Positions 5,953 through 39,454 of a DNA stretch of 64,000 nt are shown piece by piece. The stretch's first letter is position 1. Each line of letters begins with the position of its first letter. Location of the stretch: contig JBDRIL010000029.1 of assembly GCA_043815885.1 (NCBI GenBank), positions 1 to 64,000 on the forward strand, read 5' to 3'. This stretch comes from an archaeon (GTDB lineage Archaea; Iainarchaeota; Iainarchaeia; Iainarchaeales; 1-14-0-10-31-34). The translations under genes and the position numbers were made by a program. Under the pieces are notes generated by a model. That model was not told where the DNA came from and made no database searches. It saw nothing but the letters and a program-made list of their open reading frames with translations.

Positions 5953-6416
5953 TTTTAAGAAAAGCAAGAAAAAGCGATGCAAAAGGAATTGCAGAAGTAA
6001 TGATTGAATTCTATAATATTTCTTCTATTAAGGAAGGAGTGAATGCATTCAGGGAAGAAACATGTAGGGGGCATAATTTTATTGTAGCGATTGAAGGAAA
6101 AAAAGTGGTTGGATTTACTTCCTGGCTGGCGCATGGTTTGGCTAAACACGGTCTGGCTGAATTGGACAGGATTGCTGTATTGGAGGAACTGAGAGGAAAA
6201 GGAACTGGAAAAAAACTATTCAATTTTCTGGAGAAGGAAGCAAAGGAATACTACAAAAAAAGAAATTCAAGATTAAGAAAATTATTCATTTTAACGCATG
6301 CCTCAAATACAAAAGCTCAGGCATTTTATTCCTCGCTTGGATTAAAGCATGAAACAACATTAAAGAATCATTATTATGCAGGGGAAGATGAATTCGTTTT
6401 CAGTAAATTTTTTTAA
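5949..6416 (+). CDS. GNAT family N-acetyltransferase
   Basis: Acetyl-CoA motif RGKGTG, N..AQAFY..LG; ATGA overlap with glmS stop. Confidence 0.9.
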   Translation: MILRKARKSDAKGIAEVMIEFYNISSIKEGVNAFREETCRGHNFIVAIEGKKVVGFTSWLAHGLAKHGLAELDRIAVLEELRGKGTGKKLFNFLEKEAKEYYKKRNSRLRKLFILTHASNTKAQAFYSSLGLKHETTLKNHYYAGEDEFVFSKFF

Positions 6417-20899: not shown

Positions 20900-21285
20900 T
20901 GGCAAAAGAAAAGTTGAGAAAGGAAATCAAAGTATCTTTTAGTCCAGAATTTGATGAAGAATACAGAAAGTTGTTAAAAGAAGTTGTAGAGGACAGGGAA
21001 AGGGGCATTGAAAATTCATTTAACATTCAGTTGCTAAAAGCAATTGACAGAACAATTAGTTTACTTAAAATACAGTCAGACTATGGAATCCACATTCCAA
21101 AAAACAGGATTCCAAGAGAATTTACTGAGAAATATGGAATCAACAACCTGTGGAAAGTAGACCTTCCAAGCTCTTGGAGGTTGTGCTATACATTGAAAAC
21201 CAGTAGAATAGAAATACTAACCATTCTCTTAGAATTCATAAACCATAAGAGATACAATAAATTGTTTGGATACAAAAAGAAATAA
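20896..21285 (+). CDS. RelE/ParE-like toxin (putative)
   Basis: Basic protein with YGINNLWKVDLPSSWRLCYTL...HKRYNKLFGY, RelE-like pattern; paired with upstream small HTH gene. Confidence 0.65.
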   Translation: MMAKEKLRKEIKVSFSPEFDEEYRKLLKEVVEDRERGIENSFNIQLLKAIDRTISLLKIQSDYGIHIPKNRIPREFTEKYGINNLWKVDLPSSWRLCYTLKTSRIEILTILLEFINHKRYNKLFGYKKK

Positions 21286-32937: not shown

Positions 32938-34185
32938 TTATTTAGTTTTTGTTTGGGGAAGCTTTTTCTCTATTTTTACGCGGAGGATTTTTGGGGTTTT
33001 TACTTTTACTGCAGTGAATTTGTGGTTTCCGACCATTACGCTTTCGCTTTCCTTTGGAAGCCTGTCCAGTTTTTCTATAATAAAGCCGCTGACTGTATCA
33101 AAGTCAATGGAAGAGAACTTGGTTTTAAGTATTGAATTGACTTCCTTTAATGGGATGTTTCCATTTACTTCAATCGTGTTTTCATTGATTTTGTTTATTT
33201 CAGGGACAATGTCTGTTTCATCCACTATCTCTCCAACTATTTCCTCCAGTAAATCCTCTAAAGTAACCACTCCAAGAACTGTTCCGTGTTCGTCTACAAC
33301 TACTGCAATGTGAATGTGTTTTTTCTGGAATTCGGAAAGCAATTTATCTATTTTTTTAGTGCGCGGAACAAACATTACCTCCCGCATTATATCCCTTAAT
33401 CTAGTGTCGGTTTTTCCTTCAGCCAGATAAGTCCAGGCATCCTTTACATAAAATATTCCGATAATCTGTTCAGTGTTTTTTTCGTAAACAGGAATTCTGG
33501 AGAAAGGAGTTTCAGCCAAAAAATCCTTTACCTCTGCAATGGTCTGGCTTGCTTCAAGGCCCTTCATTTCACTTCTGGGAGTCATTACCTCCGAAACCTG
33601 TAAATCATTGAATTTGAATATCTTGTAAATCATTTTCTTTTCCTCTTCCTCTATTGCTCCTTGTTCTGCACCCATTGTAACCATCATTCTGACGTCTTCT
33701 TCTGTCATGGGTTCTTCTCTGGCTCCAATTACCCTGGTAATGAGTCTGGTGATGCCCTGCAATACCCATATAAGCGGAGTTAGAAGAATGGAGAGAAAAT
33801 GAATTATTCTGATTGAAAACAAGGCAATTACTTCAGAGTTCTGTACAGCAATGCTCTTTGGGGTTATTTCCCCAAATACAAGAATAAGAAAAGTCATTAT
33901 TCCCACAGCAATGCTTACTCCATAGCTCTGGAATATATTTAATGCAATAGAGGTAGTGATTGCAGCAGCAGCAACATTCACTACATTATTTCCAACAAGA
34001 ATAGTGATTAAAATCTTGTGAGGGTTCTGCTTGAATTCATTCAATAGTTCAGCGCTTCTGGAACCCTTCTTAAGCAATCGCTTAACCCTCACCCTGCTCA
34101 GAGAAATGAGTGCGGTCTCAACAGAGGAAAAAAATCCGCTCAGGATTAAGAGGACTGCAAGAATAATTAAATTTGTTTCAAGCAT
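32938..34185 (-). CDS. CNNM (DUF21)-CBS-CorC hemolysin family protein
   Basis: SGFFSSVETAL, GNNVVN, FGEITPK, FSRIPVY, VVDEHG, TLEDLLEEIVGEI. Confidence 0.95.
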   Translation of the reverse strand: MLETNLIILAVLLILSGFFSSVETALISLSRVRVKRLLKKGSRSAELLNEFKQNPHKILITILVGNNVVNVAAAAITTSIALNIFQSYGVSIAVGIMTFLILVFGEITPKSIAVQNSEVIALFSIRIIHFLSILLTPLIWVLQGITRLITRVIGAREEPMTEEDVRMMVTMGAEQGAIEEEEKKMIYKIFKFNDLQVSEVMTPRSEMKGLEASQTIAEVKDFLAETPFSRIPVYEKNTEQIIGIFYVKDAWTYLAEGKTDTRLRDIMREVMFVPRTKKIDKLLSEFQKKHIHIAVVVDEHGTVLGVVTLEDLLEEIVGEIVDETDIVPEINKINENTIEVNGNIPLKEVNSILKTKFSSIDFDTVSGFIIEKLDRLPKESESVMVGNHKFTAVKVKTPKILRVKIEKKLPQTKTK

Positions 34186-34338
34186 TTCTAATTCACTTGA
34201 AATAATAAAGCGTTAATTCTTTATAAATTATGCTCTTTTATGTAAAAAAAAGCTTGTCCCTAATGGATTGCAGGTTAGGATTTCTGCGTCTGGGAAAGGG
34301 AAAAATAGGGAAAAATCGTTAAAAAATCGAACCAAATG

Positions 34339-34346
34339 TTTAAATA
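34339..34346 (+). promoter_or_regulatory. Putative TATA box of the nrdR-nrdD operon
   Basis: TTTAAATA with A-rich BRE-like sequence upstream, about 25 bp before NrdR box 1. Confidence 0.55.
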
Positions 34347-34371
34347 TAAGGTGAGGCAATAATATAAAGGC

Positions 34372-34419
34372 ACACAATATATAGTGTGTTTTTGGTGGAG
34401 TAGGCTCAATATACGGGGT
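34372..34419 (+). promoter_or_regulatory. Tandem NrdR boxes (34372..34387 and 34404..34419)
   Basis: ACACAATATATAGTGT matches the NrdR consensus acaCwAtATaTwGtgt; weaker GCTCAATATACGGGGT starts 32 bp later. Confidence 0.85.
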
Positions 34420-34451
34420 TTTTCTGGTATTAATGTTATATAGGTGAGAGA

Positions 34452-37400
34452 ATGAAGTGTCCTTATTGCGGGAGTGAAGAAAGCAAGGTTGTGGATAAGA
34501 GGGAAACAGATGATTTGGTTAGCAATAGAAGGAGGAGAGAGTGCCTTAAGTGCAGTAAAAGGTTCACTACATATGAAAGAATTGAAAGGATTGAATTGAA
34601 TGTAGTGAAAAAGGATGGAAGAAGGGAAGCATTCAATAGGGAGAAACTGATTACTGGGATAACTAAAGCATGCGAGAAAAGGCCTGTTGGAAGGGAAAAA
34701 ATTGAAGCAATAGTGAATGAAATTGAATCAGAACTGCTTCAAAGAAAGGAGACAGAAATTCCTTCAAGAGAGATTGGAGAACTGGTAATGCAGAGACTGA
34801 AGAAACTGGATGAGGTTGCATTCATTAGGTTTGCTTCAGTGTACAAGACTTTTACTGATGTAGCTGAATTTGAGAGAGAGCTGAAAAATTTAAAGGTTGT
34901 AGAGGAAAAGTCCTCAGGAGATTCTACAGATATATTGCTGCAAGTGGCTACTCATGCAGCTGGATCCACAATTGGGTGGAGAAGGAGCAGGATAACTGAA
35001 GCATTAATGAAGGAAGCTGATTTAAGCAAGGACAATGCAGAAGAAATCGCCCAGTCAGTTGAAAAAAAGGTTTTTGCTTCAGGAATAAAGACTATTTCTG
35101 TTTCACTGATAAGGGAATTAGTGGATAATGAATTGTTTGTTAGGGGATATGAGAAGAAGCTGGAGAAACAGGGATTAATTGGAATGCCTTCCTATAATTT
35201 GAATCAATTAATCTATAACATGAGTCTGGAGAACAGCAATGTTCGTTCAAACAGCCCTGAAGCAATTAATTTAGCGATTGCAGAGAATGCATTAAAGCAG
35301 TATGCTTTAAGAGAGATATTTTCGAAAGAAGTATCCAATGCTCACTTAAAGGGAGCACTGCATTTGCATGACTTGGGTTATCCTATCCGCGTGTATTGTT
35401 CAGCGCATTCGCTTGAATTCATTAAAAAATATGGTTTAAGGCTGATCAATCTTTCAACTGCATCTACCCCGGCAAAACACGCCCATACTTTAACTGGGCA
35501 CTTGAATACATTTCTTGCCTCAATGCAGGCATACTATGCTGGAGCATTAGGAATAAGTTTTGTGAACGTATTCTATGCCCCTTACTTTGTCGGAGCCGAC
35601 TACAAGGAAATGAGACAGCAAGCACAATACCTTATTTTTTCGTGTTCACAGAATGCATTCTCTAGAGGCGGACAATCACTTGTTCCTGAGGAAACAATCT
35701 GGGTAAAGGAAGGAGAGAAATTAAAGCAAGCAGGGATAGGGGAATTGGTTGATGAATTTATTGAATTGGATGAGAGAAAGGAAGAATTAATTGACGGGAC
35801 AGAGATAAGCAGGAACAACTTCAAGGGAATTGAAGCAATTTCCTTTGACGAGGAAGGAAAGATTAGCTGCAAGAAGATAAGTGCTTTTGCAAGGATTCCA
35901 TTCAAGGGAAAAATCTATTCAATTACCACGAATAAAGGAGAAGTGAAGGGAGTTACTGGAAGCCATTCAGTGTTTGTATGGAATGGAAGGAAATTTGAAG
36001 CAAAAAAGGCAGAAGAGTTGAGGAGAAATGATTACATTGTAACTGCTTTAAAGGCAAAAGGATTAGTGGGAGAAAGGAATGAACTGGATTTAATTGAATT
36101 TTATTTGAACAGGAAGGAAGCAGAAAACGAGGTAAGGGTCTATGATACAGAGGAAAGATTCAAGAAGGCATTAATGGAGAGATACGGAAGAAGTTTCTAT
36201 AAGGAATTTGAAAAAGATACTGGAGTTAAAGCTGAATGCGTTAGGAGCAATTGGTTGAGATACAAAAAAATTCCGTTAAAGTATTACTTTGAGTTTGTTG
36301 GAAACCCCGAAGAAGAAAAACTGATTTACAAGGGAGACAGCCAGACAGTGTTTCCAGCAAGAAGCAAGGTAACTAAAAGTCTAGTGAAATTGCTTGGATA
36401 TTATGTGAGTGAAGGACACAATAGTCTGAGAAGCAGAAGCTTTATTGCAGTAAGCAATAAGGAAGAAAAATTCATTGAGAGCGTGAAGGAATGCCTGAAT
36501 GAATTGAGTTATCATTACATAGTGAATGAAAATAAAAGGAATGGAGTGAAAACAGTTGTAATTCAAGGCATTCTTGCAAAAATCATTAGTGATTTAGGGG
36601 AAGAGGAAAATGGAGTGAAGAAGATTCCATTCATTATTTATAATGCATCAAAGGAATTGCAGAAAGAATTCCTGAATGCATTCCATGAAGGAGATGGATT
36701 AAAGAGAAGGAACAGTTATGCAATAGCAAATACCTCTGAAAATGTAGTGAATGGAATCTCGCTTCTTATGGCAATGAATGAAAAAGACTTCCATTTATTC
36801 AAGAGAACTTATGCGAATGAAAAATGGAAGCCTTGCTATGAATTAAGGGAATCATTAATGGATAACAGGGTAATAGACCACAAAATAAGCAGGGAATTAA
36901 TTGGAAGAAAAGGGTTTAGAAAGGAATTAAAGAATTTGAGTGCTGACATTGAAAGCAAAGGAGGAACAAAAACTCAACAAATTCAGTTGCTTCAAATGTT
37001 AATGGAAGCAGAGGTTGGGTTTGCAAGAATAAAGGAAATCAATACCTGTGATTATGAGGGATTTGTTTATGATGTAAGTGTTCCGGGAAATGAATCATTT
37101 TTAGGAGGCACTGGATTAATCTTCTTCCATAACACTCTATTTATCGATTTTAATATTCATTTAGGGATTCCTGAATTTTTGAAAAAGGTTCCGGCAATCG
37201 GTCCAGGAGGAAAGTATACTGGAAAGACTTATGAAGAGTATGAAAAGGAAGCTCAATTGTTTGCTAAGGCTTTAATGGATGTATGGAGAGAAGGAGACGG
37301 AGATGGAAAGCCTTTTCCTTTCCCTAAACTGGATCTGCACGTTAATCAGGAAAGCTTTGACGATCCAAGACAGTTTGAGTTATTGAAGTATGCTTGCTTG

Positions 37401-38333
37401 ATTTCTTCAGAGAATGGAGCTCCTTACTTTGCATTTGACAGGGATGCAGTGAATTTATCCATGTGCTGCAGGTTAAGGACAAAGTTAACTGATACTTATG
37501 TTTTAGAGCATCCTGAAAGCATTAGGTATTGTGGTTTTCAGAATGTTACAATTAATTTGCCTCAGGCTGCTTACAGGGGAGGAAAAGGAAATATAGAGAA
37601 GTGCATTGAGGAAGTAAGGAATACAATGGATTTGGCAATGAAGGCTCATTTAGAGAAAAAGGAATTCATTTCCACTTTAATGAAGGAAAACGGTCCTTTA
37701 TGGCAGGTGGGAAAAGTCTCTCCTGATGGAATTCCTTACCTGGACTTAGATAAAGCTACTTATATTATTGGATTGATTGGATTGAATGAATGCGTTAAGC
37801 ACTTAATTGGAAAGGAACTGCATGAATCAGATGAAGCATTCAAGCTGGGATTAAAGATAATTTCTGCAATGAATTTAAAGACAAAGGAACTGGAAAAAGA
37901 GACAGGGCTTAGAGTTGCATTAGAGGAAAGTCCGGCTGAATCAGCTTCATTGAGGCTGGCGAGAGTTGATTTAAAGGAGTTTCCTGAAAGCAAGGAATAT
38001 GTGAGAGGAAACAAAGAAACAAGGGAAGTGTATTACACTAATTCAATCCATCTCACTCCTGATGCTCCAGTGAGCATTAGTGAGAGAATTGAAAAGCAGG
38101 GAAAGTTTAATCCATTAATTGAGTCAGGAGCAATAACCCATGTATTCTTAGGAGAACAAAGGCCAGAACCAGAGGCAATACTTAATTTAGTGAAAAAGAC
38201 ATGGGAGAACACTCAAAGCGACCAAATAGTTATCTCTCCTGAATTCACTGTGTGTGATGACTGCAACAGAGTAAGCCCTGGCTATAAAAGAAAGAATTTA
38301 GGAGGTAATCGAAATGAAAGAAAAAGAAGTTGA
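34452..38333 (+). CDS. nrdD: NrdR-NrdD fusion: NrdR repressor, second ATP cone and class III RNR core with intein, lacking the glycyl-radical loop
   Basis: [34 protein letters not shown] (NrdR); HLHDL, SRGGQ|T, PFPK, MCCRL, ESPAES, YYTNS (NrdD); ends after CDDC. Confidence 0.93.
35676..37133 (+). mobile_element. Intein (486 aa) with LAGLIDADG endonuclease in NrdD
   Basis: Begins SLVPEE after [17 protein letters not shown] and FHEGDG; VYDVSV...FHN followed by Thr. Confidence 0.93.
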
Positions 38334-38472
38334 AGCTGTCTGCCCTCACTGCGGAAGCAAGAATGTATACGGAATAAGCAGGGTAGTGGGATATTATTCA
38401 GTAATAAATAACTGGAATAAAAGCAAACAGGCAGAATTTTCTGACAGACAGAAAGGAGACTATTCATTGTGA
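38314..38472 (+). CDS. Stand-alone NrdD glycyl-radical domain (52 aa; not in ORF track)
   Basis: [60 protein letters not shown] 7 nt before ATG. Confidence 0.9.
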
Positions 38473-38477
38473 GTTGA

Positions 38478-38729
38478 ATGAATGCAAAAATTTTCTGGAA
38501 AGAAGGCTGTCCAAATTGCCCGGCAGCAAAAGAGTTAGGAAAGAAACTGGAAGAAAAAATTAAAGTAGAGTATCTGAATATAGAGGAAGTGGATGGATTG
38601 GCTGAAGCTTCTTTTCACGGAGTAATGAGCACTCCAACACTGATTGTACTGGATGAAAATGAAAAAGTATTAAAGCAATGGAACGGAGAAGTTCCAAAAG
38701 AAGAAGAAATAAAAGAACTGATTAAATGA
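38478..38729 (+). CDS. Thioredoxin/NrdH-like redoxin
   Basis: CPNC active site, STPTL cis-Pro motif; in the RNR operon. Confidence 0.9.
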   Translation: MNAKIFWKEGCPNCPAAKELGKKLEEKIKVEYLNIEEVDGLAEASFHGVMSTPTLIVLDENEKVLKQWNGEVPKEEEIKELIK

Positions 38730-39454
38730 ATGGAATCGAGATTGTTGGAATCCAGAAGAATTCCTTGATTGATTATCCTGGAAAAATTGTTTCAACTGTT
38801 TTCCTGAATAAATGCACGTTTAGATGCCCTTTCTGCCACAATCCGGAATTAGTATTGAATACTGATTCCAACAGAATTAAGGCAGAGGAATTAATTGAAT
38901 TTTTAGAGAAAGAGAAAAAATGGATTGACGGAATCTGTCTTACTGGTGGAGAGCCAACACTGCATGAAGCTTTACCTGAATTCATTTCCAGAGTAAAGGA
39001 AAAAGGTTTTTTGGTTAAGCTTGACACGAATGGAACCAATCCAGTAATGCTGAAAGAATTAATTGAAGGAAAGAAGCTAGATTACATTGCAATGGACATT
39101 AAAGGCCCTTTAGAGAGATATGAAGAAATTGTGAAAAGCAAGGTGAATGAAAAAGCAATTCAAGAGAGTATTGAATTAATCAGGAATTCAGGAATTGAGT
39201 ATGAGTTCAGGACAACAGTTGTTCCGGAAATATTCTTGGATGGAGATGAAGAAAGAATTGGAGAATGGCTGAAAGGAAGCAAAAAATATGTATTGCAGCA
39301 ATTCAATAATGAACACAAATTATTGGATCATTCATTCCAGCACCTGCAAGCTTTTTCTCCGCAAAAAATGCAGGAAATAAAAGAAAAAATGAATCCCTAT
39401 TTCGAGAAAGTGGAATTAAGAGGGGTTCCAACTGCATTGAAGAAGGAAAATTAA
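38726..39454 (+). CDS. nrdG: Radical SAM anaerobic RNR activating enzyme
   Basis: DYPG, CTFRCPFCHN, TGGEPT, KLDTNG, YEFRTT. Confidence 0.93.
   Translation: MNGIEIVGIQKNSLIDYPGKIVSTVFLNKCTFRCPFCHNPELVLNTDSNRIKAEELIEFLEKEKKWIDGICLTGGEPTLHEALPEFISRVKEKGFLVKLDTNGTNPVMLKELIEGKKLDYIAMDIKGPLERYEEIVKSKVNEKAIQESIELIRNSGIEYEFRTTVVPEIFLDGDEERIGEWLKGSKKYVLQQFNNEHKLLDHSFQHLQAFSPQKMQEIKEKMNPYFEKVELRGVPTALKKEN

Follow-up and report, generated by a model that had tools for sequence, protein, structure and literature searches.

Trigger enzymes such as PutA, BirA and NadR combine two activities in one polypeptide, catalyzing a reaction and repressing genes of the same pathway in response to a metabolite of that pathway. 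Ribonucleotide reductase genes are repressed by NrdR, which is described as rare in archaea in the accessible text of two papers (PMC9110341, PMC12176259) and as having no archaeal orthologues in that of a 2025 preprint (10.1101/2025.03.28.645925), while the accessible part of Lundin et al. (PMC3019208) places free nrdR beside class I operons in haloarchaea. According to a 2026 review (PMC13450708), formate lyases are the only glycyl-radical enzymes known to have small spare-part radical proteins. Here, we analyze a locus in a 64,000-nucleotide (nt) stretch of DNA from an archaeon of the Iainarchaeales (contig JBDRIL010000029.1 of assembly GCA_043815885.1, positions 1 to 64,000; the whole stretch is referred to here as the window), in which a complete NrdR forms the N terminus of the anaerobic ribonucleotide reductase NrdD.

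In our assessment, the operon at 34339-39454 probably encodes a working anaerobic ribonucleotide reductase of two chains, the larger of which carries the NrdR repressor at its N terminus and would repress its own operon. The fusion itself is widespread in uncultured archaea. The parts of the operon, given with their strand, the positions of encoded amino acids (aa) and the models or readings on which they rest, are as follows.

34339-34346 (+): archaeal TATA box TTTAAATA; direct reading
34372-34387 (+): NrdR box 1, ACACAATATATAGTGT, a perfect palindrome over the presumed transcription start; 0 mismatches to the consensus
34404-34419 (+): NrdR box 2, GCTCAATATACGGGGT, degenerate, 32 bp after box 1; 5 mismatches, C4 and G13 kept
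34443-34447 (+): Shine-Dalgarno-like GGTGA, 4 nt 5' of the large-gene ATG; direct reading
34452-38333 (+): NrdR-NrdD fusion open reading frame (ORF), 1293 aa; stop codon at 38331-38333
34452-34892 (+): NrdR module, aa 1-147, with zinc ribbon (aa 1-42) and two-nucleotide ATP-cone (aa 50-136); TIGR00244, PF22811, PF03477
34893-34967 (+): linker, aa 148-172 (LKVVEE..DSTD..), predicted flexible; AlphaFold 2 (AF2) confidence score pLDDT
34971-35162 (+): cone B, a degenerate ATP-cone-like domain without nucleotide-binding hairpin, aa 174-237; PF03477
35163-35675 (+): NrdD N-extein, to Q408; PF13597 profile 1-157 at 35229-35678, alignment A1
35676-37133 (+): intein with LAGLIDADG homing endonuclease, aa 409-894 (S1 ... 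HN, +1 Thr895); PF14890, PF14528, TIGR01445, TIGR01443
37134-38333 (+): NrdD C-extein, aa 895-1293, with finger-loop CC (C1005/C1006) and first CxxC (C1268/C1271); PF13597 profile 158-517
38300-38306 (+): Shine-Dalgarno AGGAGGT, 7 nt 5' of the small-gene ATG; direct reading
38314-38472 (+): separate glycyl-radical subunit of 52 aa (CPHCGS ... RVVGYYS); PF13597 profile 521-561, TIGR02487 profile 538-580
38478-38729 (+): thioredoxin-like redoxin with CPNC motif, candidate reductant; PF13192, E = 4.6e-13
38726-39454 (+): NrdG activase (radical SAM); TIGR02495, 210.4 bits versus a cut-off of 131.15

The NrdR module and the distribution of the fusion

The model TIGR00244 matches aa 1-147 from end to end (profile positions 1-147 of 147), with 197.8 bits for the fragment and 195.2 bits within the whole protein against a cut-off of 124.65, in line with the original prediction that the first ~147 residues are a complete NrdR. 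Besides Zn_ribbon_NrdR (aa 1-42), Pfam models identify NRDD and two stretches of ATP-cone on the same ORF. Solved NrdR chains (9fxk, E = 2.8e-42; 7p37, E = 3.8e-32) can be aligned to the NrdR module without any gap. The zinc-ribbon cysteines C3, C6, C31 and C34, which form two CxxC pairs, and the R26-29 motif are all in place. According to the accessible text of the Streptomyces coelicolor structure paper (PMC9110341), NrdR of that organism contacts DNA through R12, D15, R17, R26-29 and R37; the fusion has K12, D15, R17, R26-29 and R37 at these positions, and its contact residues are invariant or at least 90% conserved in our alignment of relatives (A1). The residues given in the same text for binding or sensing ATP and dATP (K50, R51, E56, K62, K69, F124, V127 and Y128) align, in the same order, with K53, K54, E59, K65, K72, F127, V130 and Y131. 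By this alignment, the ATP-cone of the fusion has the residues of both the inner and the outer nucleotide site.

The reading frame runs without a stop from NrdR into NrdD, as had been predicted, and NrdR is here not a free-standing protein of ~150-200 aa. One could regard the fusion as a precursor or as a convenience of coding, with proteolysis of the linker releasing a free NrdR, or an internal start yielding a free NrdD, and with free NrdR as the actual repressor. The predicted disorder of the linker (AF2 pLDDT of <50 at aa 147-172) and the separate, overlapping nrdR and nrdD genes of L035 and similar close relatives fit this explanation, which we nevertheless consider unlikely: within aa 140-185 there is no in-frame ATG, again as predicted, and the only candidates are a TTG (aa 162) and a GTG (aa 165), both without a preceding ribosome site, while the linker motif (LKVV..DSTD) is conserved among the fusions in alignment A1 and hence not free to vary. 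The AF2 model of aa 1-409 had a mean pLDDT of 60 and a predicted TM score of 0.28 and was used for domain boundaries and linker disorder only. Free NrdRs tolerate variable C-terminal tails, as the accessible text of another study reports (PMC12176259). Some database relatives (P0095, P0101-P0103 and P0108) start inside or just before the NrdR-type ATP-cone and have no zinc ribbon; they may genuinely lack the ribbon, or their genes may have been called too short.

A database search with aa 1-400 as the query retrieved 1,799 proteins at an E value of ≤0.001 among 7,999 scored candidates, and PF22811, PF03477 and PF13597 occur together in 107 of the best 120 clusters, the source names of which include Asgard, Heimdallarchaeota, Bathyarchaeia, Aenigmatarchaeota and Micrarchaeota. 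At the level of genomes, we scanned 80 loci, using one genome per species and assigning classes with hidden Markov models built from alignment A1. The two genes are fused in 20 of these loci, all with archaeal record titles; nrdR is separate and directly upstream of the same NrdD subclade in 59 (one Woesearchaeote, L035, and 58 loci with bacterial titles), and the remaining locus is cut by a contig end. Since 20 are fused and 59 directly adjoining, nrdR and nrdD are linked in 79 of the 80 loci. The original prediction had proposed a search for proteins carrying both NrdR and NRDD; these counts show that such proteins exist well beyond the window and that the relatives do not all keep the genes separate.

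That so many relatives keep nrdR and nrdD as adjoining or overlapping genes also means that a single assembly or sequencing error, such as a lost stop or an indel, could in principle have fused them. We consider such an artefact extremely improbable, given that the same in-frame junction recurs in more than 100 database clusters and in the 20 genome loci and that contigs of two further studies cross it free of indels. Specifically, Logan contigs of run X1, which may be the source sample, span 34300-35222 without a gap; those of X3, from a second study, cover 34813-35051 with 0 differences; and those of X4, from a diverged strain of a third study, cover 34811-35071 with 27 substitutions and 0 gaps. 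The linker, for which a check of reads had been suggested, is thus crossed by contigs from three studies without any indel. None of the five public runs returned for the locus was listed as RNA. Further along the gene, apparent indels at 38397/38401 and a joint at 37298-37509 were rejected as gene variants, because the short contigs concerned, with 7-10 differences per ~60 nt, represent conserved NrdD parts of other organisms.

To place the fusion among its relatives, a FastTree phylogeny was built from 72 NrdD rows, after L033, L065 and L080 had been set aside as broken and L040, L047, L069, L078, L079 and L090 as truncated. All 20 fused rows, comprising 19 loci and the window, belong to a single clade of 23 rows (SH-like support, 100), whose other three members are L035, L036 and L061, and the tree needs as few as two state changes. 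Within this clade, rows from DPANN, Asgard and Bathyarchaeia are intermixed, which suggests transfer among archaea. The fused relative L033 has a stop or frame break within its NrdD core (6057-6061), which may reflect a pseudogene or a sequencing error.

A different fusion occurs in G002, a genome of the same family (L096, 483-3489), where the NrdR zinc ribbon sits directly on a single ATP-cone of the NrdD type and the reductase belongs to a different NrdD clade. This protein has 703 aa, scores 77 bits on TIGR00244 and is accompanied by a separate radical ORF of 48 aa and by nrdG. The G002 locus is syntenic with that of the window, with the operon adjoining L11 and Spt5 genes, so that one family has two reductase types at one syntenic locus. 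Among the best 120 clusters of this second type, 104 contain PF22811, and four clusters carry the Joint Genome Institute (JGI) label [quoted passage not shown]. By its domain architecture, the G002 protein is an independent second type of fusion.

The operator and its reader

Candidate operators were scored against what we take to be the NrdR box consensus, and the octamer TTTAAATA was recognized by what we take to be the archaeal TATA consensus. The tandem boxes of the original prediction, 32 bp apart and ~25 bp after a TATA box, are found at 34372 and 34404, with a gap of 25 nt from TATA box to box 1 and with box 2 departing from the consensus at 5 positions. In the 1,160,370-base genome, no site other than box 1 matches the consensus perfectly, and only one further, unrelated site has 2 mismatches. 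Because 16-mers with ≤5 mismatches start at 1,336 of 1,159,440 genome positions, the chance of finding a site of the grade of box 2 at an offset of 31-33 is ~0.35%. The GC pairs equivalent to C4 and G13, both kept in box 2, are described as conserved and specificity determining in the accessible part of the S. coelicolor structure paper (PMC9110341). The near-consensus box ACCGTATATATAGTGT (contig C14, 27207-27222, 2 mismatches) is single, has no partner and lies between genes, ahead of an ORF for a small membrane protein; we judged it to be a chance match. Further box-like sites with 3 mismatches each lie at 21252 and 51600 of the window.

The operator is conserved among the relatives. Counting boxes with ≤3 mismatches in the 250 nt upstream of each of the 20 fused genes (5,000 nt in total), we found 16 boxes distributed over 14 of the 20 loci, compared with 4 in the 166,953 nt elsewhere in the same loci, an enrichment of ~130-fold. 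Of the 18 promoters with a box at ≤4 mismatches, that of the window among them, 11 have their best partner box at a distance of 31-33 bp and 1 at 41 bp, so that the paired boxes that the original prediction proposed to look for are present upstream of most relatives. In the accessible text of an earlier study (PMC12051234), three helical turns are the usual spacing of NrdR boxes, and four are tolerated. In 12 of 18 fused loci, counting the window, box 1 is preceded by a TATA-like octamer whose start lies 33-35 nt upstream of it. The second fusion type is similar in this respect: in the 3,450-nt locus of G002, just two sites have ≤3 mismatches, and they form a pair of boxes with a spacing of 30 bp behind TTTAAATA. 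Boxes are also found upstream of nrdR in 30 of 58 separate-gene loci (background, 8 in 515,545 nt), which indicates that the fused genes inherited an autoregulated operator.

As to the protein that reads these boxes, the 91.74%-complete window genome has a single NrdR match, the fusion, and one NrdD; neither a free NrdR nor another reductase was found in it, and the large subunit of class I/II is absent. No free NrdR was found in five other genomes with the fusion either, each of which has exactly one NrdR match, the fusion. In the absence of a free NrdR from the window genome and these five, the reader of the boxes must be the fusion. Two of the five, L022 and G064, have a further reductase. 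In L022 (4175-4500) and its relative L031, a divergent second reductase operon, with an ATP-cone-bearing gene and a PF02867 gene as separate genes, has its own box pair, 32 bp apart after a TATA box, which implies that the fusion, as the sole NrdR of the genome, acts in trans. Taken together, the retention of contact and nucleotide-binding residues and the lack of a free NrdR or another reductase mean that autorepression, as predicted from these sequences, is well supported by comparison.

The reductase core, its lost cone and the split radical subunit

The NrdD part of the ORF is identified by PF13597 (362.6 bits) and TIGR02487 (353.4 bits versus a cut-off of 326.35). Its finger loop, SMCCRL, lies at aa 1003-1008, and the cysteine column of the loop, which presumably holds the thiyl-radical site of NrdD, is at least 90% conserved in alignment A1. 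The class III core of the original prediction therefore stands, with the amendments that an intein lies inside it at aa 409-894 and that its glycyl-radical domain is on a separate ORF. The second ATP cone that had been proposed does not hold up as such: cone B gives a weak, N-terminally truncated match to PF03477 (30.7 bits, profile 11-76 of 88) and is a degenerate domain without the N-terminal hairpin that bears the phosphate-binding residues.

In bacterial NrdDs of the subclade, a canonical ATP-cone (86.1 bits and profile 2-87 in L041) comes first, and a conserved L[KR]V...DSTD stretch separates it from degenerate cone B. In the archaeal fusions, NrdR ends exactly at the start of this L[KR]V...DSTD stretch (alignment A1). 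Since NrdR thus ends where the post-cone stretch of the bacterial relatives begins, it has replaced NrdD's own activity cone; and because it occupies the place of that cone while the remaining cone is degenerate, NrdR may also control catalysis.

The same observations lend themselves to the explanation that NrdR serves solely as an allosteric or oligomerization domain in place of the lost activity cone, with a structural zinc ribbon and no action on DNA. In another NrdD, dATP-dependent tetramers are driven by ATP-cones, as the accessible text of its description states (PMC11226230), and NrdR stands where L041-type relatives keep the canonical cone. This explanation, to which we assign a low probability, leaves the invariant D15, R17 and RRRR unaccounted for, as well as the occurrence of tandem boxes three turns apart at a fixed distance from a TATA box across several archaeal phyla, and it offers no free NrdR to read them. 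An allosteric role could add to repression by the fusion; it would not replace it.

The intein interrupts the NrdD core with 486 aa, from S409 to N894, with Thr895 at +1. Its splicing blocks comprise S409, TGSH at aa 502, H893-N894 and T895, and LAGLIDADG motifs lie at aa 647 and aa 740; the junctions were placed from alignment A1 and the motif positions. By sequence, the splicing residues are intact, and splicing is predicted. The same insertion site (GGQ/S ... HN/T for the intein, GGQ/T in the NrdD core) is also occupied in the fused relatives P0047, P0069 and P0084.

The large ORF ends after the first CxxC of the C-terminal zinc site, and the second CxxC, together with RVVGYYS, is encoded by the 52-aa ORF, which is in the +1 frame and overlaps the end of the large gene by 20 nt. 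The radical domain has a gene of its own in 18 of the 20 fused loci and in 5 separate-gene loci. Among 20 split loci examined (17 fused, L033, L035 and L036), this small gene has an ATG in all, and a ribosome-site-like motif precedes its candidate start in all but L030; relative to the large gene, it lies anywhere between an overlap of 20 nt and a downstream distance of 518 nt, and each of the three relative frames is represented. By homology to single-chain NrdD, the zinc site would use two cysteines from each chain, and because the large chain has no radical domain, the 52-aa protein would be obligatory.

A frameshift or sequencing error as the source of the split C terminus was considered and rejected, since contigs of two studies reproduce the junction (X1 record 7 and X2 record 16, both with 0 differences) and since the varied distances and all three relative frames in the relatives contradict such an origin. 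After the first CxxC, the large chains end in a conserved tail, CxDCxxVS[RP]G[YF]xR (38253-38297 in the window; C termini of P0001-P0120), which is absent in bacterial relatives with a fused radical domain. Divergent from the reductase operon, at 32938-34185 (-), lies a CNNM/CorC-type transporter gene with CNNM, CBS and CorC_HlyC domains.

An ORF that stops before its glycyl-radical motif, is interrupted by 486 aa and contains a degenerate cone could be taken for a decaying or catalytically dead reductase that is kept only as a regulator. We regard this as very unlikely. The intein retains its splicing residues (S1, TxxH, HN and then Thr), and the finger loop retains its cysteines; a proper gene, equipped with a ribosome site, encodes the radical domain, and this separate gene is conserved in the 18 fused relatives mentioned above; NrdG and redoxin genes follow downstream; and no other reductase was found in the 91.7%-complete genome. 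With its finger-loop CC, RVVGYY subunit, NrdG and redoxin, and as the only reductase found, the enzyme of the window looks alive from its sequence.

Proposed mechanism and comparison with known systems

By analogy with free NrdR, the ATP-cone of the NrdR module would hold ATP in its inner site, and dATP would enter the outer site as its level rises. The NrdR modules of two NrdD dimers would then pair to form a tetramer, in which two zinc-ribbon pairs could clamp the two boxes, three helical turns apart, and the tetramer on the boxes would keep RNA polymerase off the promoter, so that nrdRD and the genes for the small radical subunit, the redoxin and NrdG would be shut down jointly. Binding of DNA by the full-length protein and its dependence on nucleotides are thus expected features of this model. 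As repressor and enzyme are the same molecule, the loop would sense the amount of enzyme as well as the dATP/ATP ratio.

The original prediction held that the enzyme blocks its own promoter against TBP, TFB and RNA polymerase. Our comparative tests all favor autorepression; as to the step that is blocked, recruitment of RNA polymerase is likelier than binding of TBP/TFB, because the boxes are located 25 nt beyond the TATA box, where transcription presumably starts. It had also been proposed that enzyme, sensor and repressor are one polypeptide, which holds insofar as NrdR and NrdD form one chain and needs correcting insofar as the radical tip is separate and the large chain needs intein splicing.

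Several points weigh against an autorepressing reductase. Box 2 is weak, with its 5 mismatches; in 6 of the 20 fused loci, the 250 nt upstream contain no box at ≤3 mismatches, allowing 4 still yields none in L032, L033 and L037 (among 21 promoters, including that of the window), and no box was seen at the second reductase of G064. Box 1 was picked by hand for the count of TATA spacings, which hence carries some choice, and the loci include sets of close kin (L016-L018, the Heimdall/Bathyarchaeia group and L022/L031), so that the counts overstate independence. The transcription start was placed with a TATA-to-start distance that we assume to apply here. It is questionable whether the geometry of an NrdR tetramer has room for the ~90-kDa NrdD body, and the AF2 model is poor. 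Finally, the support is comparative throughout.

A more speculative extension, which we find possible and rather doubtful, is that the single NrdR-type ATP-cone is the sole nucleotide sensor, such that the enzyme, when clamped to the operator as a dATP/ATP-loaded tetramer, would be inhibited in catalysis as well. One conformational event would then stop both transcription and catalysis, and the promoter DNA might act as a scaffold or effector of enzyme inhibition. As a third layer, the 52-aa subunit could be a replaceable radical cartridge that re-arms oxygen-damaged enzyme without the large chain having to be remade. What favors a single sensor is that two independent fusion types, with an NrdR cone in the window and an NrdD cone in G002, each manage with one cone.

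A full-text search of the literature, limited to papers readable without a subscription, turned up neither an NrdR-NrdD fusion nor an NrdD encoded by two genes, which agrees with the original prediction that the architecture was not known to have been characterized. In contrast to the current view of NrdR as a bacterial repressor, it is common in several archaeal groups, where it is hidden inside the enzyme that it would control. If true, the proposed autorepression would be a clear example of an essential enzyme that senses nucleotides and serves as its own transcription factor, would show a bacterial-type repressor operating on an archaeal, eukaryote-like promoter, and would provide a natural system in which to ask whether one ATP-cone governs both transcription and catalysis. 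As the only reductase locus found in the 1.16-Mb genome, the operon would determine the entire supply of DNA precursors. An obligatory separate radical subunit would, in addition, widen what is known about glycyl-radical enzymes.

Compared with free NrdR (TIGR00244; 7p37/7p3f of S. coelicolor; 9fxk/9fvr/9fzf), the module in the window has the same zinc ribbon, RRRR, D15/R17 and two-site ATP-cone residues, and its palindromic boxes match the bacterial consensus, stand in tandem three turns apart and lie over the start of a reductase operon that includes nrdR. It differs from free NrdR in being the N-terminal module of the regulated enzyme and in its archaeal TATA-type promoter. Single-chain NrdD with NrdG (1h78, 4coi/4u3e and 8p23, which we take to be from phage T4, T. 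maritima and P. copri, respectively) shares the core, the finger-loop cysteines, the zinc-site cysteines, RVxGY and the adjacent NrdG, whereas the reductase in the window has its radical domain and half of the zinc site on a 52-aa protein, NrdR in place of the activity cone, and an intein.

The bacterial nrdR-nrdD operons (Planctomycetota, Omnitrophota, Atribacterota and others; 58 loci) have an NrdD of the same subclade with 50-55% identity and nrdR directly upstream; they differ from the window in that nrdR is a gene by itself and NrdD retains its canonical ATP-cone and, in most cases, also includes the radical domain. YfiD/GrcA of pyruvate formate-lyase is likewise a small stand-alone glycyl-radical protein, but it is a back-up for an enzyme with its own radical domain, whereas the large chain in the window has none. 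Trigger enzymes, lastly, are unrelated in fold and chemistry, and the DNA-binding part in the window differs from theirs in being a complete member of an otherwise free-standing repressor family.

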